From Actinomycetota bacterium (GTDB lineage Bacteria > Actinomycetota > UBA4738 > HRBIN12): a stretch of 39,146 bases of DNA. Position numbers and translations under genes: made by a program. Below, one piece after another: positions 5,201 to 21,340 of this stretch; positions within the stretch are counted from its first letter, which is position 1; the number at the start of each line of letters is the position of its first letter. The notes below the pieces were generated by a model. That model worked only from the letters and a program-made list of their open reading frames with translations. It had not been told where the DNA came from and did not search any database. The stretch spans positions 1 through 39,146 of the forward strand of contig DATAEV010000043.1 of assembly GCA_036257875.1 (NCBI GenBank). The letters run 5' to 3'.

Positions 5201-6439
5201 TCAGTGGGGCACCGAGGACTCTTGTTTGGCTCCGACTAATCGGCTGGCCCGGTGCAGTCGGATGGGGTGCGGCAGGCCCTTCAACTCAACGAGTCCGATG
5301 TCCACGAATCGTATCGCCGGGTTCTGTGACAATCGGACGACGCTGTCGCTGACCAAGACCTGCCCAGGCCCACCATGAGAGGCAATCCTGGCGGCGGTGT
5401 TGACCGTCCTACCGAAGTAGTCACCGTCCTGGAAGATCACCGGGCCAGCATCTATGCCCGTGTGAGGCGGCGGAAGGCCAGCGGCCGGAACGCGCTCGGC
5501 GAGCTCCAGCGCCGAGATGACTGCCCCATCGGGCTCGGCGAAATAGAGCATCACGCCATCCCCCAACCACTTGACGGGCCGGCCTCTTTGGTCGTTCGCA
5601 CTGCGCTGGACTAGTCCCCCGAGGACGGCCGCCATCTCGGCGGCGGCCTCATCCCCTCGCTCCTCGGTCAGCTGCGTGTAGCCGGAGAGGTCGAGGAAGC
5701 ACATGGCCGGCAGTTCAGCAACCGTGTGATGCAGCCCCGCCTTCTCCAGGGTCGCCTCTACCGCTTCGACCACGTTGGCCATCCAGGTGTGCTCCGACTG
5801 GCCGTGGTACATCGATGCGAGCGCTCGATCGATGTACGGGATACCCGCTGCGACGGCTTCGTTAGCCGCCTGCAGAACCTGAGCCTCGCTTAGCCCCGAT
5901 CGAAGGAGCGGGACCTCGATCTGGCCGCGGTAAAAGGTCGCCGATGCTTCGGTGATGCGGCGCATGCTCTCGCCCCACACCCGGACCAACCGCTCGATCG
6001 CCACAGGGTCCGCCCCGGCCTCGAGGGCTATCTTCACCACGGGGACCAGATCGAGCGCTTCCTCGTGGACAGGATCCTCCGGCTCGGGACGAGCGAACCC
6101 CATCGACTCCCGAATGACCTGCAGGAGCTCGAGGCCCAGTCCGGTCTCAGCGCTGAGCTCCCGATAGGTCTTCCCGATGAACCCGCCGTACCACTCCCAG
6201 CTCGCGAGATCCAAGAACCCGAAGGAGAGATCCCCCTTTCGGACGGCTGTGCCCATCCCCTCGAGCGGCAGACCTCCCTCCTCGAGACCCCGAACCAAGC
6301 GCACTCTCCGAACATCACCTCCGGTGAACAGCGAGCCGGTCTTCGGTGCAGCGAGGATGCCGAGCTCGAGCAGCCGATCCACGTACCCAACATGGACCCC
6401 CGCTCGCTCGGCCAGTGCTTCGCGCGTGAGTCCGCCCAC
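5201..6439 (-). CDS. MerR-like HTH domain / helical linker / class III adenylate-guanylate cyclase domain protein
   Basis: Track ORF, 412 aa, GTG start. The N-terminus LTREALAERAGVHVGYVDRLLELGIL is HTH-like. The C-terminus has MCFLDLSGYTQLTEERGDE...KWLGDGVMLYFAEP...HTGIDAGPVIFQDGDYFGRTVNTAARI, which are class III cyclase motifs. Confidence 0.85.
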   Translation of the reverse strand: MGGLTREALAERAGVHVGYVDRLLELGILAAPKTGSLFTGGDVRRVRLVRGLEEGGLPLEGMGTAVRKGDLSFGFLDLASWEWYGGFIGKTYRELSAETGLGLELLQVIRESMGFARPEPEDPVHEEALDLVPVVKIALEAGADPVAIERLVRVWGESMRRITEASATFYRGQIEVPLLRSGLSEAQVLQAANEAVAAGIPYIDRALASMYHGQSEHTWMANVVEAVEATLEKAGLHHTVAELPAMCFLDLSGYTQLTEERGDEAAAEMAAVLGGLVQRSANDQRGRPVKWLGDGVMLYFAEPDGAVISALELAERVPAAGLPPPHTGIDAGPVIFQDGDYFGRTVNTAARIASHGGPGQVLVSDSVVRLSQNPAIRFVDIGLVELKGLPHPIRLHRASRLVGAKQESSVPH

Positions 6440-6475
6440 GACCCAGGCATGGTATCGGCTGCCTTAGGGCGACGG

Positions 6476-8011
6476 TCAGCCCGACGGGGCACCCGGCAGA
6501 CCCGCCAATCGTTGGAGCCCGTCATAGGCAGCGTACTTGTAAGCCTCGCTCCGAGTCGGAATGTTGAAGGTCGCGTGGATGAAACGGTCGATCACTCCGC
6601 CCTCGTGCATCACGGCCTGACCCTGGTGGATGAGCTCCGACGCGATATCGCCCAGGATGTGCACGCCGAGCAACACTCGGTCCTCGCGTCGGAAGACTAA
6701 CTTCACCAGTCCGTCGGTCCCACCGTCTATCACCGCCTTGATGTTGCGTGAGAACCAACCTCGGCCGACCTCGTACGCGATGCCTTGCCTCGTCGCGGCC
6801 TCCTCCGTCAGGCCGACCATGGCCACCTCGGGGATGGAGTAGATGCCGTACGGCGGGAGGGGATCAACCGTTTCTTTGAACGGGATGCCGAAGGCGTGGC
6901 AGGCGGCGACCCTTCCCTGCTCCATCGAGACCGAGGCCAGGGCAGGGGGGCCGATGACGTCGCCAGCCGCGTAAATCCCCTTCGCGGTCGTTCGGAACTC
7001 CTCGTCCACGACGATCCGGCCTCGGGCATCGATCTGCACGCTCACCTCCTCGAGGCCCAGGCCTTCGGTATTTCCTGCCCGGCCCGCCGCGAACAGGACT
7101 TTCTCGGGCCGGATGACCTCCCCGCTCTCGAGAGTGACCCGCAGCTCACCGTCCGCCCGCCGAACCGCACCGACCCCGGACCCCAGGACGAGGCGCACCC
7201 CCATCCCGGAGAAGGTCGCTCCGAGGAGCCGGGAGATCTCACCGTCCACGAACGGAAGGAGCCGCTCACCGGAATCGAGCAGCACCACCTCGGTCCCGAG
7301 CGAGGTGAAGATCGAAGCGTACTCACACCCGACCGGTCCCCCTCCGACGACCACCATGCTGCGGGGGATCCTGTCGATGCCGAGAATTCGTTCCGAGTCA
7401 TACACGTCGGGGTCGTCGAACGGAACGTCGGGAGTGTGAAAGGGCCGAGATCCGGTGGCGACCAGAACGATGTCAGCCTGTAGCGTCCTCGGTGCGGCAT
7501 CCCTGTCCGGGGTTACAACGACGGTTCGATTCGGCCCGAAGCTACCGGTTCCCCGCACCATCTCGATCTGGTGACGCGCTATGTTCTCCTTGACCTGGCC
7601 AACCATGGCGGCCTGGACGTGCGCAGTTCGATCCATCAGCCTGTCGAGCGTCGCGTCCGGATCGAGATGAATGGACAGGCCGTAGACCTCGCGTCGGCGG
7701 TACCCCGTTAGATACAGCGCGGTCTCCCTCAACGTCTTCGTCGGGACCCCTGCGCTGCTGACCAGGGCTCCCCCTGGGGCCGCCCGCCGCTCCACGATGG
7801 CCACCCGCTTGCCGAAGAACGCGGCCTGGGCGGCGGCTTTCTCGCCCGCGGGCCCAGCACCAATCACCACCATGTCGAAGCTTGCCACTGCGGCAGCGCT
7901 TGGCGTTGTCTCGATGTGGGGAGACGAGCTTGCGGTGGCCTGAGATTCCGGTCCGGGCCGCGGGACGGCGGGCACGCGGACCTCCTCCTCCGATCCATCG
8001 GTGAATTCCAT
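6476..8011 (-). CDS. sthA: Soluble pyridine nucleotide transhydrogenase-like flavoprotein (FAD/NAD(P) disulfide-reductase fold)
   Basis: Has FDMVVIGAGPAGEKAA (FAD GxGxxG), GGALVSSAGVPTKTLRETALYLTG (no redox-active CxxxxC, as in SthA) and VVGGGPVGCEYASIF (NAD site). Track ORF 6476..8152 is trimmed to ATG 8011, which has a GGGAG SD. The N-terminal ~45 aa extension is uncertain. Confidence 0.75.
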   Translation of the reverse strand: MEFTDGSEEEVRVPAVPRPGPESQATASSSPHIETTPSAAAVASFDMVVIGAGPAGEKAAAQAAFFGKRVAIVERRAAPGGALVSSAGVPTKTLRETALYLTGYRRREVYGLSIHLDPDATLDRLMDRTAHVQAAMVGQVKENIARHQIEMVRGTGSFGPNRTVVVTPDRDAAPRTLQADIVLVATGSRPFHTPDVPFDDPDVYDSERILGIDRIPRSMVVVGGGPVGCEYASIFTSLGTEVVLLDSGERLLPFVDGEISRLLGATFSGMGVRLVLGSGVGAVRRADGELRVTLESGEVIRPEKVLFAAGRAGNTEGLGLEEVSVQIDARGRIVVDEEFRTTAKGIYAAGDVIGPPALASVSMEQGRVAACHAFGIPFKETVDPLPPYGIYSIPEVAMVGLTEEAATRQGIAYEVGRGWFSRNIKAVIDGGTDGLVKLVFRREDRVLLGVHILGDIASELIHQGQAVMHEGGVIDRFIHATFNIPTRSEAYKYAAYDGLQRLAGLPGAPSG

Positions 8012-8300
8012 TTCGGAAACTCCCACGACGGGGCACACCCCCTCCTTGGATCTTCTTCTGCCGGCAAGATTCTCTCCCACGGCCGCTTTCGCCCTCGTCG
8101 CTACCCAGGGAGCGAACGACCGGCTCTTGCAAGCTCTATGAACTGGGCCCATCGGTCCCGGACCGAGTCACCCGATTGGGGGAAACAGAATTCACCCGTT
8201 GCCGCACGTGCAGAAATCGCCCAGTACTCCGATGCAGGTAGTAGACGCATGCATTGAGTGGGGACCGGTGGGCGGGCCCGTCTTGGCGTCGAGAGGGGGC

Positions 8301-9092
8301 ATGATGGTTGGCGGAGCAGACGACGCTCGAGACGGGGTAGGTGTTCGTTCAACCCTGAGCGATCAAGCGCTCGGGGGAGAAGTCGTACCGCTGAAGCTCG
8401 AGCCGGCGGGTATCGGCCATAGCCCTCAGCAGATCCTTGAAGAACGAGAGAACGCGCAGCTGCGGGCCCTCGTGGCGGAGCAGAGGTTGGCTGAGATCGA
8501 GGCGGCGCGTGCGGCGGCCCAGGATCAGCTTCAGAACTCCCCCACCAACGAGGCGGAGCTATCAGCCACCCGAGAGAAGCTCCGCGCTCGCGCACAGGTT
8601 CGTGCCGCCGAAGAGAGGGAGGAGGCGGTCGAGGCCGAGCTGGTGATCACGCGGGAAGAGCTCCGCTGCGTGTCTGCCGAGGCCCGGAGGGCGAACGCGA
8701 GATTCGTCGAGCTACAGGCGGAGTTCCGAACGACGCTCGAGTCTACGAGTGACCAACTGCGCGAATCTACTGCAACCACCGAGGCCGAGCTCTTAACGAT
8801 ACGGGGGGAGCTCGCCGAACGGATCGACGAGGCAAGACGCGCCCAGGCTGAGATCGCCGAGCTCCGAGCCGAGCTGAACGCCCGCGAACGCGCGGGACCC
8901 GAGCTGGTCCAGTCGATCCTGACGGCTGTCTTTGGTGCCCGGTCCAGCGTCGATGAGGTGCCGAACCGCATAAAGGACGCTCTGGCTCCGACCGCCGACG
9001 CCGTCGCGAGACTGGGCGACTGCCTCGACCAGCTAACCCGATCGCCAGACTTGGCACGCCGCGAGCCCACGCTGGGTGTGGAGGAGGCATAG
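8301..9092 (+). CDS. Hypothetical Ala/Glu/Arg-rich coiled-coil protein
   Basis: Track ORF 8199..9092 trimmed to ATG 8301, which follows GAGAGGGGG. It has long heptad-like stretches (AELSATREKLRARAQVRAAEEREEAVEAEL..., EARRAQAEIAELRAELNARE). I recognise no catalytic motif. Confidence 0.6.
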   Translation: MMVGGADDARDGVGVRSTLSDQALGGEVVPLKLEPAGIGHSPQQILEERENAQLRALVAEQRLAEIEAARAAAQDQLQNSPTNEAELSATREKLRARAQVRAAEEREEAVEAELVITREELRCVSAEARRANARFVELQAEFRTTLESTSDQLRESTATTEAELLTIRGELAERIDEARRAQAEIAELRAELNARERAGPELVQSILTAVFGARSSVDEVPNRIKDALAPTADAVARLGDCLDQLTRSPDLARREPTLGVEEA

Positions 9093-9176
9093 CGTTCGAG
9101 GAAGCGAACGACGGGCGGCGACGAACACTCCTTGCTCGCCCGGCCGCCCTTCCGGTCAGCGCAGCCGTGCTTGGTT

Positions 9177-9258
9177 GAGGGCGGGTCGAAGCACCCTCGG
9201 GGCCCGGGGGGCGGCGAACGATCGGCGTATCCCTTCTCCGACCCCTGACCCGCCCGTC
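9177..9258. repeat. Hairpin-forming element, copy B (GAGGGCGGGTC ... GACCCGCCCGTC)
   Basis: Aligns with 2170-2258; the ends form a perfect 9-bp stem. A partial extra copy of the internal GCGAACGACGGG block lies at 9104-9115, 12 nt identical to 2205-2216. Confidence 0.6.
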
Positions 9259-9298
9259 TGTTCGGTTCCACCTCAGGGATCTCGGGTCGCCGAGGACA

Positions 9299-9550
9299 TC
9301 ATCGGGTCGTCGAAACGGTGCGTGAGCTTTCTGCATCACGCGTCCCGTCGGGGGTGTGTTCGGGTCGCCGCTCCACCCTTGGCAGTCGCCTCCGCCGAGG
9401 CCCATCGCCAGCTTCGAGCGAAACGCTCCACCCTTCGGCCTCAAGCCTCGTCCTGATCTGGGAGGCCACTTCCGGGTGAACGTCCCACGTCAGCAGCGTT
9501 TCACCTCTCATCGCTCGCAACTCCACGAGACGGTTCATCACCTGACTCAC
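9299..9550 (-). CDS. Hypothetical small protein (83 aa; the C-terminal half is low-complexity)
   Basis: Track ORF with GTG start at 9550 or ATG at 9538. The N-terminal MNRLVELRAMRGETLLTWDVHPEVASQIRTRLEAEGWSVSLE looks protein-like; the rest is Arg/Pro-rich. Confidence 0.3.
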   Translation of the reverse strand: MSQVMNRLVELRAMRGETLLTWDVHPEVASQIRTRLEAEGWSVSLEAGDGPRRRRLPRVERRPEHTPDGTRDAESSRTVSTTR

Positions 9551-9658
9551 CTACAGGGTGTCGGCACAACGGGGGGGCACCTGAAGGCGGACTCGCGAAT
9601 GCTGAGACTTTGCTCTAAGAGATGGACGATCTAGCCTCTTCCTTACACCAAGGATGGC

Positions 9659-9847
9659 TCATTCTCCTTTCAGCCGACGGCGCTTCGCCTTCGCGTCCTG
9701 CCGGCCGAGTTCCGTGACGCGATACACGGGCGCGAGCGTCCCATCGCGCCGAGGCCGGAATTCGCCGGTCGGCTCGATCAGGCCGTCGGCCACGAGCTCG
9801 GCGATCTCATAGCGGATCCCGCTCAGACTCGGATCGACCTGGTTCAC
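9659..9847 (-). CDS. Small winged-helix-like DNA-binding protein (62 aa)
   Basis: GTG start after a GGAGGTGG SD. IAELVADGLIEPTGEFRPRRDGTLAPVYRVTELG resembles the recognition helix plus wing of wHTH regulators, followed by a basic tail KAKRRRLKGE. Confidence 0.5.
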   Translation of the reverse strand: MNQVDPSLSGIRYEIAELVADGLIEPTGEFRPRRDGTLAPVYRVTELGRQDAKAKRRRLKGE

Positions 9848-9911
9848 GGGGCCACCTCCAACGAGCTCGCCGCACGGTCGCGATCAAGTGCCGGGTTCTG
9901 CCTCACGAGTG

Positions 9912-10241
9912 TCATCGACGCTCCTTCCGCTGCTTGGCCAGTGCTCCTTGTCGGCCGGTGCGGGTGGCGTGGCATCGCCGGCAGACGGCCCGCAGGTTCT
10001 CAAGCTCATCAGTGCCTCCAGCCTCCGGCTGGACGATGTGATCGACCTGGGAGGCTCGCCCGAGGCAGCCGGGGTACCGCAGCTGGCAGACGTAGCCGTC
10101 CCGCTTGAGCACTCGCGCTCGGCGCTCCGGCCAGTCCCCCTTGTAGGCGTAGGCGTTGGCCGGGGGCTTCTTGGTCCAGGCCTTCCCGCCATGCCGCGTG
10201 CATCCCACAACCCCGCAGTGGGGACAGGCCCGGCGGATCAT
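9912..10241 (-). CDS. HNH endonuclease (109 aa)
   Basis: N-terminal CPHCG...C..H Zn knuckle. The core VLKRDGYVCQLRYPGCLGRASQVDHIVQPEAGGTDELENLRAVCRRCH has the D-H...N...H signature. The ATG overlaps the upstream stop (ATGA 10238-10241). Confidence 0.85.
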   Translation of the reverse strand: MIRRACPHCGVVGCTRHGGKAWTKKPPANAYAYKGDWPERRARVLKRDGYVCQLRYPGCLGRASQVDHIVQPEAGGTDELENLRAVCRRCHATRTGRQGALAKQRKERR

Positions 10242-10555
10242 CGGGGCAACTCGTAGCCGACCACCGGATGCGGGAGGAACCGGACCCGGACCTCGGCGAT
10301 CCGCGTGGTCCCCTCTACCTGCTCGAACCGCGCCTCGACCGGGTAGACCCCGTCGCCGAGACCCGTCCCGACGAGCACCGCGACGCCGACGCCACCCTCG
10401 TTCGTGACGACTACGTAGTTCATCGAGCCGGACTCGCCCAGGTCGTAGCGGGAGACGTCGTCCGCGTTCATAGGATCAACGAGCGCCAGCAGCCCCGTGT
10501 CGACGGGTACGTCAGCGATTCGCTGCCACTCGCCGCTCTGCGGTGATCCGGTCAT
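10238..10555 (-). CDS. Hypothetical protein, DUF4241-like (105 aa)
   Basis: VDTGLLALVDP...VLVGTGLGDGVYPVEARF...IAEVRVRF resembles, from memory, the DUF4241 C-terminal pattern. It has ATGA overlaps at both ends. Confidence 0.55.
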   Translation of the reverse strand: MTGSPQSGEWQRIADVPVDTGLLALVDPMNADDVSRYDLGESGSMNYVVVTNEGGVGVAVLVGTGLGDGVYPVEARFEQVEGTTRIAEVRVRFLPHPVVGYELPR

Positions 10556-11001
10556 CTCGGCTCCTTCCTGGCACTCATCGGTTCCTCCTCATCCGTTCCG
10601 GTCATTTCGGCCTCCTTCTGGTTTCCCCCGGCGCGCTGTTTTTCGCGAAGCCTGGCAGGTGGCAGTGCCGTGCGCGGGCCGGGAAAAGCAGGTTCGGCGA
10701 AGAAATCTGTCGGACGCGCGCCAGGTGGCACTGAGCGGGAGTGGATGGGAAGAAACGGGATTCTCCACGCGTGCTCCAGGTCGTGGGTCAGGGTGACAAG
10801 CTGCACGGCTCGGACATGACTGCATCGACCGAGCGCAGGACATCCGCAGGACCACCCGTCCGGATCCCACGTCACGACGTAAACCTCGGCCTCATCGCCT
10901 CGGACATGGGCCACGATCAGGTCGTCACCGATACGCCGGATGGTGACCCTGCCTTCTGACACGAGCCGGCGGGCCTTGGTCTGGGCGTCCTCACGGGTCA
11001 T
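10552..11001 (-). CDS. SWIM zinc-finger protein (149 aa, disordered C-terminal half)
   Basis: VTWDPDGWSCGCPALGRCSHVRAV fits the CxCx(n)CxH SWIM signature. There is a GAGGAGG SD upstream of ATG 11001. Confidence 0.75.
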   Translation of the reverse strand: MTREDAQTKARRLVSEGRVTIRRIGDDLIVAHVRGDEAEVYVVTWDPDGWSCGCPALGRCSHVRAVQLVTLTHDLEHAWRIPFLPIHSRSVPPGARPTDFFAEPAFPGPRTALPPARLREKQRAGGNQKEAEMTGTDEEEPMSARKEPR

Positions 11002-11030
11002 AGTTCCTCCTCAGTTACGAAAAGTCTGAT

Positions 11031-11062
11031 AAGGGGGAAGAGGGGGTATGTATAAGAGGGGG
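11031..11062. repeat. Iteron-like direct repeats: AAGGGGG, AAGAGGGGG, TATGTAT, AAGAGGGGG
   Basis: Three G5 repeats around an AT-rich core, in the 77-nt gap directly 3' of the replication-type ATPase gene. An inverted copy, TTCCCCCT, lies at 11088-11095. Confidence 0.5.
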
Positions 11063-11078
11063 TCCCGACTTCTCGTGT

Positions 11079-12356
11079 TCACGCGGTTCCCCCTATGGCC
11101 AGCGTCTTTATGGTGTTCATGCCGTCCGTGGTGAGGGTCCAGCGCAGATCTTGGCCGGTGCCTGAACGCTGCACGAGGCCGATCGCGGTGAGGTCCTCGG
11201 CCACAAGACGCAGCGTCGAGATCGGCAGGTTCGTGGCGTTGGCGAGGTCCGCGGTTGAGGCCGGATCCTCCCCGACGAGCTGCCCGAGGACACCGACACG
11301 AACCTGCGGCATGGAGTCCCGGCCGACCCGCGCAACGACCTGGAGGGCACCCGGCTCGTCGTAGCCGATCGCCATGAGTGCGTTCGCCAGCGCCGCCACG
11401 GCCTTGGCGAACCTCGCTGGCACCTCTAGCTCGGGGACCACGAGGATCTCTCTCGTGTAGCCGTCGCGCTCGATGCCGGTCCGGCCTTGGGTGGCGTAGC
11501 GGGACACCGCCACGATCTCGGCGGTGGCTTCAGGCGAGAGGCTCCCACCGGCGGGAGGCACGTGCGCGAGGAACGCACGCATAGCCTCCCGGAGCTCGGC
11601 CCGCATCTCGTGCTCGTGGCCCCTCGTGGCCAGCGCCCTGGCGGTGAGCGTGTCCCGATCCTCGGGAGGCAGGCGCAGCATCAGGAACCGCTGCCCCAGC
11701 ACGGCGAGCACCTGGTGGTGGCGGTCGATCACCGGGGTGACGCCGGCCAGGAACCCGAGACGCCCAGTCCAGGACACCGACTGCCCATTACCGAAGTCCT
11801 TGGAGTACTCGCCGTCGTAGATCTCCCTCAGTGCCCCGAGGATCTCTGAGCGTGCGTCGCGGTGCAGGCTCAGCACGGTGGTGAAGTCCTTGAGCACGAG
11901 GAACGACAGCCCTTTGTCCTCAAGCCGGTTGAGCAGGCTGGACGACCGCCCCTTGAACCCGGACACGAACGTCTGGCCGGTGAGCGACGACAGCTTGTAG
12001 ACCTCGGGACAGTCGGTGAGGGACTGCAGGATCTCGGTCTTGCCCGAGGACGGCGGCGAGACGAACTGCAACCACAGCGGATCTCCGCCAGCCCGATGGG
12101 CCACGACGGCCGCCGCCGCAACGTCGATCGCCACCAGATCGGGCAGGTACAGATAGCGCTGAAACTGCTCGTGCAGCTCCTGGAGCGATGGCGAACCTCC
12201 TGCAACCGTGGCCGCAGGTTCGGTCGAGGGTTCGCGCGTGACGTCCAGACCCTCAAGCTTCGGCCGCCCGTTGGTTGAGGGTTCGGAAGTTACTTCCAGA
12301 CCCTCAAGTGCCAACCACTCCTGCTCCTCCTCCCACGTCTTGAAGAAGGGCATCAC
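11079..12356 (-). CDS. P-loop NTPase of the plasmid/phage replication (DUF3987 / primase-associated helicase-like) type with a C-terminal winged-helix region
   Basis: Walker A is VSPPSSGKTEIL; Walker B-like is LSFLVLKDFTTVL. HRDARSEILGALREIYDGEYSKDFGNG...WTGRLGFLAGVTPVIDRHH matches a family I recall from actinobacterial plasmids and integrated elements. The N-terminus has a duplicated LEGL(E/D)VT(S/R)EPST. The start is GTG 12356 or ATG 12353. Confidence 0.7.
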   Translation of the reverse strand: MMPFFKTWEEEQEWLALEGLEVTSEPSTNGRPKLEGLDVTREPSTEPAATVAGGSPSLQELHEQFQRYLYLPDLVAIDVAAAAVVAHRAGGDPLWLQFVSPPSSGKTEILQSLTDCPEVYKLSSLTGQTFVSGFKGRSSSLLNRLEDKGLSFLVLKDFTTVLSLHRDARSEILGALREIYDGEYSKDFGNGQSVSWTGRLGFLAGVTPVIDRHHQVLAVLGQRFLMLRLPPEDRDTLTARALATRGHEHEMRAELREAMRAFLAHVPPAGGSLSPEATAEIVAVSRYATQGRTGIERDGYTREILVVPELEVPARFAKAVAALANALMAIGYDEPGALQVVARVGRDSMPQVRVGVLGQLVGEDPASTADLANATNLPISTLRLVAEDLTAIGLVQRSGTGQDLRWTLTTDGMNTIKTLAIGGTA

Positions 12357-12538
12357 GTGATCCGCCCTTGGTCGCGCCAGCGGAGCTCACGGAGGAACCA
12401 GGACTCGTGTCGGTCCAACCACCGGATCAGATCGTCCATCCGGCGCATCGACCGTTCGTATTGCTCTCGTTCGGCGTGTGAGCTATCCTGGTCCCAGCCG
12501 AGGGCGGTCTCGCGGGTTTCCCGCGGGGCCGCTTTCAT
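12353..12538 (-). CDS. Hypothetical small protein (61 aa)
   Basis: C-terminal part of track ORF 12353..12859, starting at an ATG that overlaps the upstream stop (ATGA 12535-12538). MKAAPRETRETALGWDQDSSHAEREQYERSMRRMDDLIRWLDRHESWFLRELRW is helical and charged. Confidence 0.5.
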   Translation of the reverse strand: MKAAPRETRETALGWDQDSSHAEREQYERSMRRMDDLIRWLDRHESWFLRELRWRDQGRIT

Positions 12539-12807
12539 GTCTGGACCTTCTTCCGGCGAGCTTGCGCGGACTTCAACGCGAGCGAGAGGAAGTGGGGCTT
12601 CTTGGCGTGGCCTGCGCGGCGAGCCCGCTCGGCCGGATCCAAGAGACCATCGGGGTCTACCTGCTTCTCCCAGTACCCATCGGCACCGGGCGAAGCAGCG
12701 CGAGCGTTCTTCGTCAGCTGGCGGTCGTCGTACTTCGGGTTCGCGTGTAGCGAGTGGGCACCGAGCGTCGAGATGATCGATCGCTCTTGGGGGGACTTCG
12801 AGGGCAT
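12535..12807 (-). CDS. Conserved hypothetical protein of actinobacterial integrated elements (90 aa)
   Basis: Track ORF. LGAHSLHANPKYDDRQLTKNARAASPGADGYWEKQVDPDGLLDPAERARRAGHAKKPHFLSLALKSAQARR resembles small proteins I recall beside integrases in actinobacterial elements. Confidence 0.6.
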   Translation of the reverse strand: MPSKSPQERSIISTLGAHSLHANPKYDDRQLTKNARAASPGADGYWEKQVDPDGLLDPAERARRAGHAKKPHFLSLALKSAQARRKKVQT

Positions 12808-12922
12808 TGCCGAGCCTCCTGGCTCGGCGGTGCCCTAGGCCGCACGATCTTCCCGGCACAGCCGGAGGAGGTTCGGACTTTTATGCCTGCGTCATCCTAC
12901 AACGCTGTGCTGTGCCGTGCGG

Positions 12923-13183
12923 TCAAGGATCGCCCATCCGACGCACGCTCCTGGTCATGATCACGGGTGGAGAGGGGTTGAGCGCCAGCCGCAGTAGGTC
13001 CTCGTCGTGAACCTGCATCGCGCCGTGCTTGGGGCAGTCGTAGAACCGCTCCTGCCATCGCAACGGGTCGAAGGTGACGATGCCCTTGGCGAAGTTCAGG
13101 TCCTCCCGCTCGATCTGGGGCTCCAGCCTGCGACCGCACGGCTTCCCGCCGTTGAGCACTCCGCATCGAACGGTGATCTTCAC
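12923..13183 (-). CDS. Cys-rich (zinc-ribbon-like) small protein, 86 aa, translationally coupled to the integrase
   Basis: Track ORF 12923..13327 trimmed to the GTG that overlaps the integrase stop (GTGA 13180-13183). [17 protein letters not shown]...(45 aa)...YDCPKHG gives a C..C...C..H arrangement. Confidence 0.5.
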
Positions 13184-14106
13184 AGCCGGTCCCCCGGGGA
13201 GAGCCGACGGTGCGCGTCGCGGGCTCGCTCGGTCGCCGTGGCGGCGGCGTAGCGCTGCAGCATCGTGCGGCTGTTCCACCCGGCGAGCCGCATGAGGTCG
13301 GTCTCTTCGCCGCCCGCCTGGAGCCACGCGCTCGCGAAGGAGTGTCGGAGCCGGTGGGGCGTCACCGCGCCGATGCCGGCCTGGATCCCGCGCCGCTCAA
13401 GCATCTGCCGGATGCCGCTCGTCGTCATAGGCCCGCGTGCTCCGAGCCAGAACTCGGGCCGATCGGCTTCCGGATGCGTTCGCCGCGACCGCAGGTACCG
13501 GCCGAGCGCCTTCGCGGTTTTCGCGCCGAACGGGACCTCGCGGAGCTTCCGGCCCTTGCCGAGGACACGTATGCCACGGCGCTCGGCGATGTCGACGTCG
13601 TCAATCATCAGGCCCGTGCACTCAGCGAGTCGGATCCCGGTGTCGTACAGGAGCGCGACGAGCGCGGCGTCACGCCGGTCCGCGAACGTTCGACCCTCGC
13701 ATGCGCCCAGCAGCGCACGGATGTCTTCGGAACGGAGCACGGGGGGCGGCTGCACGATCACCTTCGGCGGACGGACGTGGCGCATCGGGTTGGAAGCCTC
13801 GGCGACCTCGCCCTCCTCGACGAGCCAGCGGAAGATCTGCTTGATCCCGTCGTAGTACGCCTTCGCCGACGCGGCCGCGTATCCACCCTCCCCGAGCATC
13901 CACGCGAAGAACGCCTCCAGGTGCTCGCGAGCGATCGCATCGGCCGCGGTCGGCATGCCCTGCCGGCGACAGAACGCCTCGAACATCGTCACGCCGCGGA
14001 CGTAAAGCTCCACGGTCCTCGGCGACCGGTTCGTCGCTTCCAGGGAGATCCGCCACTCAGGGAGCAGCTCGACGATGTCGTTCGGTGCCCTGGTCGCCGT
14101 ATCCAT
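13180..14106 (-). CDS. Tyrosine recombinase / phage-type integrase
   Basis: Has an SAM-like N-domain ([19 protein letters not shown]). Catalytic residues are in [12 protein letters not shown] (R), HRLRHSF (HxxR) and [13 protein letters not shown] (Y). I prefer ATG 14106 over the TTG at 14142 used by the track. Confidence 0.9.
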
Positions 14107-14170
14107 GACCGGGATGTTATCCGCTGTGCTACCGCTGTGCAACTGCCAGATACGGCGTTTGTCCTGCTAG

Positions 14171-14243
14171 TGGACCCAGGGGGATTCGAACCCCCGACCT
14201 CATGGCTGCCAGCCATGCGCTCTACCAGCTGAGCTATGGGCCC
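14171..14243 (-). tRNA. tRNA-Ala (anticodon GGC)
   Basis: The reverse complement GGGCCCATAGCTCAGCTGGTAGAGCGCATGGCTGGCAGCCATGAGGTCGGGGGTTCGAATCCCCCTGGGTCCA folds as a cloverleaf. It has the G3:U70 alanine identity pair, anticodon loop CTGGCAG and T-loop TTCGAAT. CCA is not encoded. Confidence 0.9.
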
Positions 14244-18115: not shown

Positions 18116-18580
18116 ATGGACCCCGTGATCGAACCGACGACCGTGTGGATGGTGCACCTCGACCGCACGCCTACCGACGAGACCGAGGGGATCCTGTCCG
18201 CCGACGAGTGGGAGCTCGTCTTCGTGGATGCCGGCTCACCGGAGACGACGCGCTTCCCGTTCGTCGACATCGTGAACGTCAAGCGCGTGCTCGGCTCCCC
18301 GGTCTTCACGCTCGGATGGCGCTTCCACGACGAACGGCGTCAGACCGCGTTCTATCTGACGCGCCCGCCCCCGCTCGGCACCCTCCCTCCGGGGGGCGGG
18401 CCGCCGGACATCCCCGACCTCAGGGCCGCCACGACGTTGCGCAGGAGTGGGCGGTGGCGTCAGCGCCGGGACAACACGCGGTACCTCGTCGCGACGTCGA
18501 CCTCGTTGAAGGAACAACGTGACGCGTTGGTGTCACAGATCAAGGCGGCGATGAAGCAGGCAGGGGGCGAGCCGTCTTAG
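18116..18580 (+). CDS. Hypothetical protein (154 aa) encoded antisense between obg and rpmA
   Basis: Track ORF with strongly GC3-biased codons and a non-repetitive N-terminal 90 aa ([39 protein letters not shown]). I recognise no family. Confidence 0.5.
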
Positions 18581-19198: not shown

Positions 19199-21340
19199 TC
19201 AGTCAACGTCGTAGGTGAGGATGATGCCCCGGCCTTCGCACGTGGGGCAGATCTGGGAGAACGATTCGACCAGGCCCGAGGATACCCGCTTGCGTGTCAC
19301 CTGCATCAAGCCGAGTGGGCCGATCTCGAACACCTGCGATCGTGTCTTGTCGATCGCCAGCGCATCCCGCATCGTGTCCTCGACCTGCTTCTTGTTCTTC
19401 TCGAGGAGCATGTCGATGAAGTCGATCACGATGATGCCGCCGATGTCGCGGAGCCGGAGCTGACGAGCGACCTCCCGAGCCGCTTCCAGGTTCGTGTTGA
19501 CGACCGTCGCCTCGAGGTTCGTCTTCCCGACGCTCTTGCCGGTGTTGACGTCGACGATCGTCATCGCCTCCGTGCGCTCGATGATGAGGTAGCCGCCCGA
19601 GGGCAGCCACACCTTGCGATCGAGCGCCTTGTGGATCTGCTCGACGATCCGGTAGGCCTCGAACGCCGGGAGTGGGCCCGTGTGCAGGGTGACCTTCTCG
19701 GCCAGATCGGGCGCCACCTCGCGGACGTAGTCCACCACCAGCCCGTACACGCGCTGTGAATCGGTCACGAGCCCCCGGTACTCCTCGTCGGTGAAGAGGT
19801 CCCGGACGACCCGAACCGTCAGTTCCGGCTCCTCGTAGAGCACCGTGGGCGCCTTGCCCCTCGTCGCCTTCGACCGGATCTGATCCCAGATCGCCAGCAG
19901 CCGCCGGAGATCTGCCTCGAGTGCCTCCTCGGTTGCGGACTCGGCCGCGGTCCGGACGATCACGCCGTGCTCCGGCGGCTTCACCCGCTTGAGGAGGGTC
20001 TTGAGTCGTTTGCGAGCTTCATCCGGGAGCCGCCGGCTGATGCCCTGGAGATCCTGGTTCGGCGCGAGCACGAGGTAGCGTCCCGCGAGGCTCAGGTTGG
20101 CGGTGAGCCGAGCGCCCTTGCCGCCCATCGGGTCCTTCGTCACCTGGACCATGACCGCCTGTCCCGGCTTCAGGAGTTGCTCGATGCGCGGTGCGGCTCC
20201 CTCGATGTCTTCCGGCGAGTAGTTGACCTCGCCCGCGTACAGGACGCCGTTGCGACCGCGACCCACGTCGACGAACGCCGCCTCCATGCCGGGAAGGACG
20301 TTCTGCACGCGACCCAGGTAGATGTTGCCCACCATCGAGGTCGCCCCGGCCCGTGTCACGTAGTGCTGGACCAAGACATCTTCCTCGAGCACTGCGATCT
20401 GGTCGCGGTCGCCGCGCTCGGTGATCACCATGAGTTTGTCGGTCACACGCGGAGGCGTCGGCTGTGGCTGGCGACGCCGGCCCTCGCGTCCCGTGCGGCT
20501 CCGCGTGGTGCGGATCCCGCGGGTCGGGCCGCCGGCGGCCACCTGCTCCTCGATCGTCTTCGCCTTCGCGGGTCGCGAGCGGGCCGGCTGCGGCGCGGCC
20601 GGCTCGGTCGCGGCCGTCAGACCGGTCGGGGCTTTCGTGGTGCGCTGAGGGTCGTCGGCGCGGCTCGCAGAGGAGCGCCGGCGACGTCGCGCGGGAGGCT
20701 TCGCGGCCGCGTCGGCGTCCGGTTCGGCCTCGTCCCGCTGGGCGTCGACCGGATCGATCACCGGCGCGTCGTCGGCGTCGGCGTCGGCCGGAGCGGCCCC
20801 GGCCGGCTTCCTGCTTCGGCCCCGGCCGCCACGACGCCGCCTGCGCTTCTTGACCGCGGTGGTGGCGCCATCAGCCTGGGCCTCCGTCTGCGCCGGCTCC
20901 GCGCCGTCGTCGGAGACGGGGGGCTGGGGAGAGCCCGTCGTCTCCGACGGATCCCCGGTCGTCGGCGTGGTCGCCGTGGATCCGGCGGGCTTCCGTCTCC
21001 GAGGCTGCCCGGACCGCTGCGGTGACTTCGGCTTCGAGGTTCCGCCCGTCTCAGCCGGCCGATCGGGCTCGGATGACGCGTCGGCCTCAGCCCGGACGCT
21101 GGCCGATCCCTCGGACGGCTCGGCCGGCGTTGTCGCGACGTCGCCGGATCCATCGCTCGTGCCGGATGCGGCCGCGGCCCCCGACCGGCCTCGGCCCCGC
21201 CCGCGGCCACCTCGACGGCGGCGGCGGGACGCGGAGGTTCGGGTCGGTGCCCGCTCGGCAGGCGATGTGGTGCTGGTCCCCTCCTCGGGGGTCGGCGTCA
21301 CGGACGCCGCTCGGCCCTCGACATCGATGTCGTGGTCCAT
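19199..21340 (-). CDS. rne: Ribonuclease E/G family endoribonuclease with a long Arg/Pro/Ala-rich N-terminal extension
   Basis: S1 domain GNIYLGRVQNVLPGMEAAFVDVG; catalytic region DVNTGKSVG...GGIIVIDFIDM; Zn-link CPTCEGRG. Track ORF trimmed to ATG 21340, which has a GAAGGGAG SD. Confidence 0.9.
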   Translation of the reverse strand: MDHDIDVEGRAASVTPTPEEGTSTTSPAERAPTRTSASRRRRRGGRGRGRGRSGAAAASGTSDGSGDVATTPAEPSEGSASVRAEADASSEPDRPAETGGTSKPKSPQRSGQPRRRKPAGSTATTPTTGDPSETTGSPQPPVSDDGAEPAQTEAQADGATTAVKKRRRRRGGRGRSRKPAGAAPADADADDAPVIDPVDAQRDEAEPDADAAAKPPARRRRRSSASRADDPQRTTKAPTGLTAATEPAAPQPARSRPAKAKTIEEQVAAGGPTRGIRTTRSRTGREGRRRQPQPTPPRVTDKLMVITERGDRDQIAVLEEDVLVQHYVTRAGATSMVGNIYLGRVQNVLPGMEAAFVDVGRGRNGVLYAGEVNYSPEDIEGAAPRIEQLLKPGQAVMVQVTKDPMGGKGARLTANLSLAGRYLVLAPNQDLQGISRRLPDEARKRLKTLLKRVKPPEHGVIVRTAAESATEEALEADLRRLLAIWDQIRSKATRGKAPTVLYEEPELTVRVVRDLFTDEEYRGLVTDSQRVYGLVVDYVREVAPDLAEKVTLHTGPLPAFEAYRIVEQIHKALDRKVWLPSGGYLIIERTEAMTIVDVNTGKSVGKTNLEATVVNTNLEAAREVARQLRLRDIGGIIVIDFIDMLLEKNKKQVEDTMRDALAIDKTRSQVFEIGPLGLMQVTRKRVSSGLVESFSQICPTCEGRGIILTYDVD

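Follow-up and report, generated by a model that had tools for sequence, protein, structure and literature searches.

A tRNA-Ala-linked integrative island of a phage-satellite-like family in uncultured Actinomycetota

Phage-inducible chromosomal minimalist islands (PICMI) of the Vibrionaceae are defined by the genes int, alpA and prim next to fis, package headful concatemers without an HNH endonuclease, and need a small gene, 'iolg', for excision (PMC10803314). The EPIP satellites of Mycolicibacterium are 11 kb long and carry a serine integrase and structural genes (PMC12822802). The present analysis concerns a tyrosine integrase-led element behind a tRNA-Ala(GGC) gene in an Actinomycetota bacterium of the lineage UBA4738; HRBIN12 (contig DATAEV010000043.1, assembly GCA_036257875.1), whose 39,146 nucleotides are referred to here as the window. 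To our knowledge, hardly any phage satellites of high-GC Actinomycetota have been described beyond phiRv1/2, MiniFlayer/MulchRoom and the recently reported EPIPs, and we know of none from uncultured soil lineages. A first-pass annotation, made by a model from the nucleotide sequence alone, had proposed a compact integrative element at 9299–14243 with its own replication module and without structural or transfer genes. Comparison with related loci supports an integrative island, gives a window-specific segment of ~6 kb (8086–14169), and assigns it to a lineage-specific, previously undescribed island family in uncultured soil Actinomycetota that is of the known kind represented by phage-inducible chromosomal islands (PICI) and phiRv elements. 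The balance of evidence leans towards this copy being a stranded, decaying member of that tRNA-Ala-associated, phage-satellite-like family.

The island at tRNA-Ala and its relatives

The tRNA-Ala(GGC) gene lies on the minus strand (14170–14243; ARAGORN; Rfam, 71.6 bits) and is complete, and a tyrosine integrase gene (int) starts 63–64 nt beyond its 3′ end; both features of the earlier annotation were confirmed by these programs and by the open reading frame (ORF) coordinates. The island has nadD, LCP and rsfS on its right side and sthA on its left. Many of the metagenome contigs that encode an identical RsfS protein carry the island at 99.7–99.9% identity. Among other contigs with this protein, one (L006) stops exactly at the tRNA 3′ end, and two with 96–98% identical flanks (L007, L009) diverge after base 14170 into unrelated DNA. 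Six loci in metagenome-assembled genomes (MAGs) were recovered with the LCP protein, the nearest of them in an 'uncultured Actinomycetes bacterium' MAG. Five of these (L018–L022; flanks 84–96%) break at 14169/14170, and the sixth (L023) ends before the tRNA; the DNA beyond tRNA-Ala differs lineage by lineage. A further relative (L003; flank 94.8%) keeps the integrase at 92% identity, followed by other genes that include an AAA_25 helicase. Because homology to relatives with 84–98% identical flanks stops precisely at the 3′ end of the tRNA, the segment is strain-variable and has the tRNA as its right boundary. These alignments establish, at the level of sequence comparison, a horizontally acquired integrative island linked to tRNA-Ala, as had been proposed, which is absent from close relatives.

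The comparison of the rsfS/tRNA-Ala/sthA locus that had been recommended did not yield a simple empty site. Relatives show other DNA after tRNA-Ala, often with a DUF222-type HNH gene, and the neighbors upstream of sthA differ as well. The DUF222-type (13E12-like) gene is on the opposite strand at a variable distance past tRNA-Ala in island-free relatives (L018 12479–13639; L007 2041–2871; L021; L022) and is 81–86% identical across lineages, within surrounding DNA that varies. The sthA region of relatives aligns from 8085 (L024, 95.8%) or 8071 (L025–L027, 85%) to ~5240, and the DNA upstream of sthA in these four loci is unrelated to the window. The left limit of window-specific DNA was accordingly placed where this homology starts, at 8085/8086, ~55 nt upstream of sthA. 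Since homology starts only at 8085/8071, the gene for a 263-aa coiled-coil protein (8301–9092, plus strand, opposite to the island genes), which is absent upstream of sthA in L024–L027, is window-specific too. Of the core genes described on both flanks, the nadD-LCP-rsfS group on the right was verified, while on the left the coiled-coil gene intervenes between the island and sthA. Should the coiled-coil gene and the adjoining 565 nt of non-coding DNA (9093–9658) be part of the island, its end would move from 9299 to ~8086. None of the relatives examined has tRNA-Ala adjacent to sthA, which means that the island did not simply insert into a locus that is collinear in all other respects; the DNA left of the window copy is not the ancestral tRNA flank, and the sthA block has been relocated. 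This block (5236–8085) is itself a conserved patch of ~2.85 kb (96% identical to L024), with DNA on both sides that varies between close relatives. Its left breakpoint (~5236) falls inside an adenylate/guanylate cyclase gene and a paralogous cyclase fragment (L024 2040–2315) is located just upstream of L024 sthA, which suggests that cyclase paralogues mediated rearrangements.

The integrase belongs to a clade with at least 1852 close homologues. Integrases of 68–92% identity stand behind rsfS-tRNA-Ala(GGC) in all six loci examined (the window, L003 and L117–L120), and the four placeable homologues (L117–L120, 68–76%) share the order L21-L27-obg-nadD-LCP-rsfS-tRNA-Ala-int. Three relatives were long enough for an att test, and in each of them a 46-nt copy of tRNA positions 29–74 recurs downstream (3.07 kb in L117, 9.95 kb in L118, 9.0 kb in L119). 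The 3′ 46 nt of the window tRNA (14170–14215) correspond to this att core of the family. The P′ arm, ~60 nt beside the tRNA, shows conservation among the window, L003, L117, L118 and L119, while neighboring bases diverge; in L117–L119 there is also a conserved P arm, the ~75 nt that precede the distal repeat, and the motif CAGCGGATAACA is common to the two arms. In the window, the P′ arm (14107–14169, minus strand) contains tandem GCACAGCGG repeats and the family arrangement TTGCACAGCGG..GCGGATAACATCC, with GCGGATAACATCC just upstream of a co-oriented int orthologue. The tRNA-proximal junction of the window copy, core and P′ arm, is intact. A tandem array is present in L117 (9864–15311), where a 3.07-kb unit (int, WhiB and a 496-aa tape-measure-like gene) lies between two att copies; another unit, 2.3 kb long, has at its end a third att copy that is slightly degenerate.

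The distal marker of the family, a 46-nt direct repeat with its ~75-nt arm, is absent from the whole 39-kb window. The duplication of the tRNA-Ala 3′ end that the annotation had proposed to look for as attL was found neither by blastn-short nor by Smith-Waterman comparison against shuffled sequences, and an nhmmer profile of arm plus core scored the tRNA alone (E = 2.8e-14). No distal core or arm lies within 14 kb of this copy. Two look-alikes near the left end were considered as att remnants. One (8103–8122) agrees with the L118 arm at 14 of 15 positions, then reads CCCTGGGT, and ranked 45 of 7794 windows; the other (9143–9205, plus strand) has a 15/17 arm match with a degenerate T-arm and gave the top ad hoc window score. 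Neither is claimed, because the profile search does not support them. A 20-nt stretch at 18412–18431, in the core region right of the island, is a 90% match to part of the tRNA-Ala anticodon/T-stem and is probably a chance occurrence.

Variation among population members adds to this picture. The gene rep, for the replication protein discussed below, is split by a 5-nt deletion in L188; the gene p105 has a 1-nt deletion in two assemblies (L108, L109); and Rep of L004 has a G105S substitution in Walker A. The tally of population SNPs is ~8 synonymous to 12 non-synonymous, and SNPs and indels pile up in the non-coding stretch 9093–9658. No circular junction was found among 16 contigs with the exact integrase, all of which show the same integrated context. 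The window copy is read as stranded and decaying because the distal core and arm are missing, the flank is non-ancestral, and frameshifts occur in rep and p105 of population members; its distal end was probably lost by deletion or rearrangement.

The att-bounded relatives are 3–10 kb in length, lack tail and lysis genes, and carry mosaic cargo. L118 encodes ClpP, a protein like p90 of the window, a DUF3631 ATPase, capsid, portal, an S78 protease, HNH and the large terminase TerL, while L119 encodes a p90-like protein, an AAA_25 primase/helicase-like ATPase, HNH, the small terminase TerS and TerL; the cargo of L117 is WhiB and the tape-measure-like gene. In IMG/VR, three contigs (L051, L061, L069) combine a 43–45% identical integrase with a longer Rep homologue, capsid and portal; p90 is present in L061 and L069, and of the three a prohead protease was found in L061. 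Replication and packaging modules of the family are interchangeable, with three replication ATPase types. The att-bounded relatives are phage-derived mosaics, a pattern that SatelliteFinder calls PICI or cf-PICI (capsid-forming PICI), including phiRv1/2, and the window holds the most reduced family copy seen. The phage-satellite architecture that had been suggested is upheld insofar as the nearest analogues are satellites and not prophages or actinomycete integrative and conjugative elements (AICEs); an active minimalist satellite is not the reading preferred for this copy.

Replication, packaging and accessory genes

The island genes start with a Xer-like tyrosine integrase of 308 aa (13180–14106 from an ATG, or to 14142 from a TTG; minus strand). 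It matches PF00589 (1e-28), SAM-like N-domains and phrog_1, scores far below the XerC/XerD equivalog cut-offs, and has readable R..K..HxxR..W..Y catalytic residues in its translation. Nine co-oriented ORFs had been reported after int, of which eight, reaching to 9659, were confirmed. The ninth, an 83-aa ORF at 9299–9550, has a third-position GC content (GC3) of 0.68 versus 0.79–0.87 in real genes and is non-coding. Five 4-nt overlaps read exactly as annotated (GTGA 13180–13183, ATGA 12535–12538, GTGA 12353–12356, ATGA 10552–10555 and ATGA 10238–10241). The first joins the int stop to the start of p86, a Cys-rich ORF of 86 aa (12923–13183, minus strand). L003 and L120 also have an int-overlapping ORF in this position, and that of L120 shares the motif CxCG..GGKPC. 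As a positional analogue of PICMI 'iolg', p86 is a candidate excision or directionality factor. It is followed by p90 (90 aa, 12535–12807, minus strand), which is conserved in the family between int and the replication gene. tblastn with p90 gave matches of 54% in L119, 43% in L061, 55% in L069, 42% in L118 and 39% in L003, and p90 is found beside all three replication ATPase types. The next ORF, p61 (61 aa, 12353–12538, minus strand), is translationally coupled at both ends. None of p86, p90, p61 and p62 had an informative family match in Pfam, PHROGs or NCBIfam. The 115-nt gap between p86 and p90 (12801–12922) contains several inverted repeats, with 16-nt arms at 12801–12816 and 12821–12836, together with a GCACAGCACAGCG stretch like the arm motif beside int, and may be an internal promoter or operator.

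The gene rep (11079–12356, minus strand) encodes a 425-aa protein that had been annotated as a P-loop replication-type ATPase, a call that withstood structural comparison. The protein contains the Walker A sequence SPPSSGKT and had no sequence match in Pfam, NCBIfam or PDB. Foldseek with its AlphaFold2 (AF2) model (pLDDT 90) recovered the MCM ATPase, BchI and RuvB and the superfamily 3 (SF3) helicases NrS-1, African swine fever virus (ASFV) PrimPol and monkeypox virus (MPXV) E5 (E 2e-7 to 5e-4), at TM-scores of only ~0.4. Among at least 496 homologues, PrimPol/PriCT, zf-CHC2, Toprim or PF22763 domains occur in 11 of the best 120, and long extensions at the N-terminus are found in many more. 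The AAA+ core with Walker A and B, the C-terminal winged helix and the association with primase domains are those of MCM/SF3-like proteins, and on the predicted model the 425-aa protein has the fold of an MCM/SF3-like AAA+ replicative helicase, without a primase domain. The Rep family has 137 relatives in IMG/VR, many on contigs of 35–65 kb, and was found in none of 50,697 cultured-phage records and none of 72,556 plasmids (PLSDB).

Two regions are candidates for replication control. Homologues of Rep align only from residue 57, and the first 56 codons are not conserved and hold two 51-nt tandem units (12210–12308; TRF score 135, also detected by a repeat finder), each of them internally palindromic, which may represent an origin or operator. 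The intergenic region between rep and the next gene (11002–11078) had been described as containing iteron-like repeats. Only two exact ACCCCCTCTT copies (10-mers at 11038–11047 and 11054–11063) are present; a partial CCCCCT copy makes a third, and the region also holds one copy in inverted orientation and a spacer rich in A+T. Population indels also occur here. These CCCCCT repeats with the adjacent spacer form a candidate iteron-type origin. Rep relatives are also found in a second island family, behind secG-tRNA-Leu(GAG) (L013 7077–15379, L014 432–10831 and L015–L017), which has a different integrase of 374–380 aa, HTH_3 and HTH_17 regulators, and a Rep 75–83% identical to that of the window. 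The L014 island spans 10.3 kb between 57-nt att repeats, and that of L013 ends with a lone HK97-type capsid gene beside a type I restriction-modification system. On contig S6ipZnPU (JGI sample 3300041966, 47 kb), the genes listed after rep are a 62-aa minus-strand gene and a 72-aa gene, and then none; this contig may be a variant without the SWIM-p105-HNH segment.

The HNH endonuclease (109 aa, 9912–10241, minus strand) was correctly recognized in the first annotation and matches PF01844 (6e-9) and phrog_333 (2e-25). Homologues occur in 1127 phage records, and in actinophages the gene is the first or last of the genome, beside the genome end and terminase. In Arthrobacter phage JasmineDragon, 67 nt separate the end of gp70 (HNH) from the right end of the genome, and TerS and TerL are encoded by gp1 and gp2. 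The HNH gene also directly precedes TerL in L118 and TerS-TerL in L119. By homology and gene position, it is a packaging HNH of the cos-end or genome-end type. The preceding gene, p105 (10238–10555, minus strand), encodes a beta-rich 105-aa protein that matches phrog_5209 (6e-6) and is a conserved HNH partner. The p105 family comprises 201 representative clusters, and in at least 35 metagenome loci p105 is directly before an HNH homologue, with identities of 60–74% for p105 and 64–82% for HNH. These islands have other integrases and DUF3631 ATPases, and HNH is their last co-oriented gene. No terminase, portal or capsid homologue from the query panel used was found after p105-HNH in these loci, and none was detected by Pfam on ORFs sampled in three long ones; att repeats were not found in L136, L143 and L155. 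The AF2 model of p105 (pLDDT 80) had no informative fold match in PDB or BFVD. The protein encoded between Rep and p105 (149 aa, 10552–11001, minus strand) has a low-complexity tail. The SWIM and DUF4241 calls made earlier for this part of the island are partly supported: a CxC..CxH motif is visible, and both the SWIM match (PF04434, E 0.0075) and the DUF4241 match (E 2e-4) are under the Pfam cut-offs. The SWIM protein had no relatives in cultured phages or IMG/VR, and single-protein IMG/VR scans with p105, SWIM and Int gave no matches. Cultured-phage searches with Rep, p90, p105, SWIM and the coiled-coil protein were also negative, as were plasmid searches with Rep and p90.

The last co-oriented gene is p62 (9659–9847, minus strand; GC3 0.79), a putative winged-helix protein of 62 aa with a weak phrog_1123 match that the Rep C-terminus also shows. 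From int to p62, the island spans only 4.5 kb. The 565-nt stretch beyond p62, which holds the rejected 83-aa ORF, contains no frame with coding-type GC3, has no Rfam match, and showed no terminase, portal or capsid remnants; such pseudogene remnants were also not found in 8000–9950 as a whole. A search of the non-coding region 9093–9911 against phages returned only a 45-nt chance match, and tblastx of the left region returned low-complexity noise only. The coiled-coil protein gave only SMC/JetC-like coiled-coil noise and had no relatives in metagenome or cultured-phage scans. The lack of structural and transfer genes noted at the outset was borne out, in that no ORF matched a capsid, portal, terminase, tail, lysis, FtsK/Tra, relaxase or MerR/HTH_17 excisionase model in Pfam, PHROGs, NCBIfam or PADLOC. 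PADLOC found no defence system in the window, and the Rfam scan of the window found the tRNA alone. The minus strand showed no terminator-like site, which permits, and does not show, read-through from rsfS-tRNA. Elsewhere in the window, 20501–21000 has an odd composition (GC 0.78, AT skew −0.47) far from that of neighboring DNA.

Competing explanations and proposed life cycle

Several points weigh against a stranded, decaying copy. The window copy has no broken ORF, and five of its gene junctions show translational coupling; with the 99.7–99.9% identity across many samples, the intact ORFs mean that the copy could be recent and still functional. An integrase-helicase-HNH set without terminase may be a complete design and not a truncation, since p105-HNH is terminal in at least 35 islands and no terminase, portal or capsid homologue from the query panel was found after it there. 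A distal att might exist at a distance of more than 14 kb or, after an inversion, in another part of the genome, and indels in metagenome contigs can be assembly errors. Neither a helper phage nor induction, excision or packaging was observed for any family member in the material, which consists of static assemblies only. The intact relatives could also be deletion derivatives of a full prophage.

An intact, active minimalist satellite, whose distal att would be non-canonical, very short or located beyond the window, is the best placed of the alternatives, and we regard it as unlikely. It accounts for the intact and coupled genes, the integrase catalytic residues, the undamaged proximal core and P′ arm, and the many small islands that end in p105-HNH without terminase. 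PICMI make do with ~6 kb that holds int, a single regulator and a single replication gene (PMC10803314), and the two weak arm- or core-like matches near the left end (8103–8122 and 9143–9205) might be counted in its favor. On the other side, relatives with 68–74% identical integrases have perfect 46-nt repeats with arms, and nothing in the window reaches a comparable profile score. Beyond the island, the DNA differs from the ancestral tRNA flank, population members have frameshifts in rep and p105, and the circular junction was seen in 0 of 16 contigs.

The segment might instead be the early region (int, replication, HNH) of a full-size temperate cos phage from which late genes and the distal att have been deleted, which appears improbable. 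The order int ... rep ... HNH matches the part of siphophage genomes that precedes cos and terminase, terminase genes directly follow HNH in L118 and L119, and the Rep family is present on viral contigs of 35–65 kb. The missing distal att and ancestral flank are also consistent with such a remnant, and L117, in which intact att copies enclose int, WhiB and a tape-measure fragment, resembles an internally deleted prophage. Yet no att-bounded relative is larger than 10 kb or has tail or lysis genes, and a full prophage with this integrase was seen in none of six contexts. The window has no cI/Cro-type switch or other early genes within the mere 4.5 kb from int to p62, and no terminase, portal or capsid pseudogenes in 8000–9950. 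A plasmid-like, self-replicating mobilizable element derived from an AICE and moved by a co-resident conjugative element would fit an integrase with its own replication ATPase and no capsid genes, and TraB-type transfer in actinomycetes requires a cis site alone, but this origin is very improbable given the lack of FtsK/TraB, RepSA/RepAM, Nudix/Pif or KorSA-type genes, a Rep family with 0 of 72,556 plasmids and 137 IMG/VR relatives, an HNH of phage packaging type, and terminase, portal and capsid genes in family members.

For the stranded copy that we favor, gene content suggests how the ancestral, intact element may have lived. Its own Xer-like tyrosine integrase would have directed entry into the 3′ half of tRNA-Ala(GGC). 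In an intact element, Int and a small directionality factor would excise the island between the two att copies, and the helicase would replicate the resulting circle from an origin beside or inside rep, with primase and polymerase supplied by the host or a helper. The cos-type HNH and p105 would then recruit the terminase and capsids of a helper phage. The satellite life cycle, the dependence on a helper and the role of p105-HNH in packaging are thus predicted from the genes that family members carry.

A broader proposal is put forward tentatively. Islands with integrase, helicase and p105-HNH and without terminase or capsid may form a distinct, widespread class of minimalist satellites in soil Actinomycetota that redirect a cos-type helper terminase via HNH and p105; the rsfS-tRNA-Ala clade would then be a hotspot for module swaps, and the window copy recently immobilized or still mobile. 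The family provides markers for finding satellites in metagenomes, namely the 46-nt tRNA-Ala att with its arms, the swappable modules and the p105-HNH end module. A further marker is the helicase family, which has no Pfam model, is absent from cultured phages and plasmids, and is common in viromes. The p105-HNH module also raises HNH-based packaging hijack as a candidate mechanism. For annotation, the lesson is that a tRNA-adjacent integrase followed by intact-looking genes is no proof of a mobile element, because the window copy has these features without a second att.

Comparison with described elements

The island differs from a complete prophage in having no terminase, portal, capsid, tail or lysis genes. 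It resembles AICEs of the pSAM2 type as a small tRNA-integrating element of Actinomycetota that encodes a tyrosine integrase and brings a replication gene of its own. Unlike AICEs, it has neither an FtsK-like Tra nor a rolling-circle, RepSA/RepAM or prim-pol Rep, and Xis, Pif and Kor are likewise missing; its Rep family is absent from plasmids, and the other genes of the family are phage genes. The EPIP satellites were ruled out as relatives by their 11-kb size, serine integrase and structural genes (PMC12822802). Rep is like the MCM/SF3-type primase-helicases NrS-1 and ASFV PrimPol in its AAA+ fold, its C-terminal winged helix and its homologues fused to PrimPol/PriCT, zf-CHC2 or Toprim domains, and it is unlike them in having no family assignment at the sequence level, no primase domain in the window protein and TM-scores of ~0.4.

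Closer parallels are found among satellites. Like PICMI (Vibrionaceae; PMC10803314), the island is ~6 kb in size, combines an integrase, one replication gene and a few genes of unknown function without capsid or terminase, has a small gene that overlaps int by 4 nt, and includes large non-coding stretches. It departs from PICMI by the absence of AlpA and primase, its tRNA site, its cos-type HNH and its different phylum, and it does not contain the PICMI core. With cf-PICI, it shares the HNH core marker, and L118, L061, L069 and L051 encode an HK97-type capsid and portal beside the int-rep module, with a prohead protease in L118 and L061 only. The window itself has only the HNH of the cf-PICI genes; capsid, portal, protease, connector and terminase are absent.

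By the SatelliteFinder markers of PICI, the window has the integrase and lacks the small terminase and a capsid-related hijacking gene; as regards the primase-replicase, it has the helicase-like AAA+ protein without a primase domain, and no window ORF matched HTH_17, HTH_3 or AlpA as an AlpA/Stl-type regulator. The copy thus differs from PICI and from phiRv1 and phiRv2 of Mycobacterium (PMC10085698) in its lack of TerS, a capsid-related gene, an AlpA/Stl-type regulator, a primase domain and a distal att. The integrase is Xer-like and tRNA-Ala-specific, and Rep is an unclassified MCM/SF3-like helicase. What it has in common with PICI and the phiRv elements is the plan of a small, integrase-led island in which a replication gene comes next and some of the phage packaging or head genes come after it. 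HNH recurs as a marker of such islands, and the relatives L118 and L119 carry packaging and head genes within 9–10 kb between att repeats.

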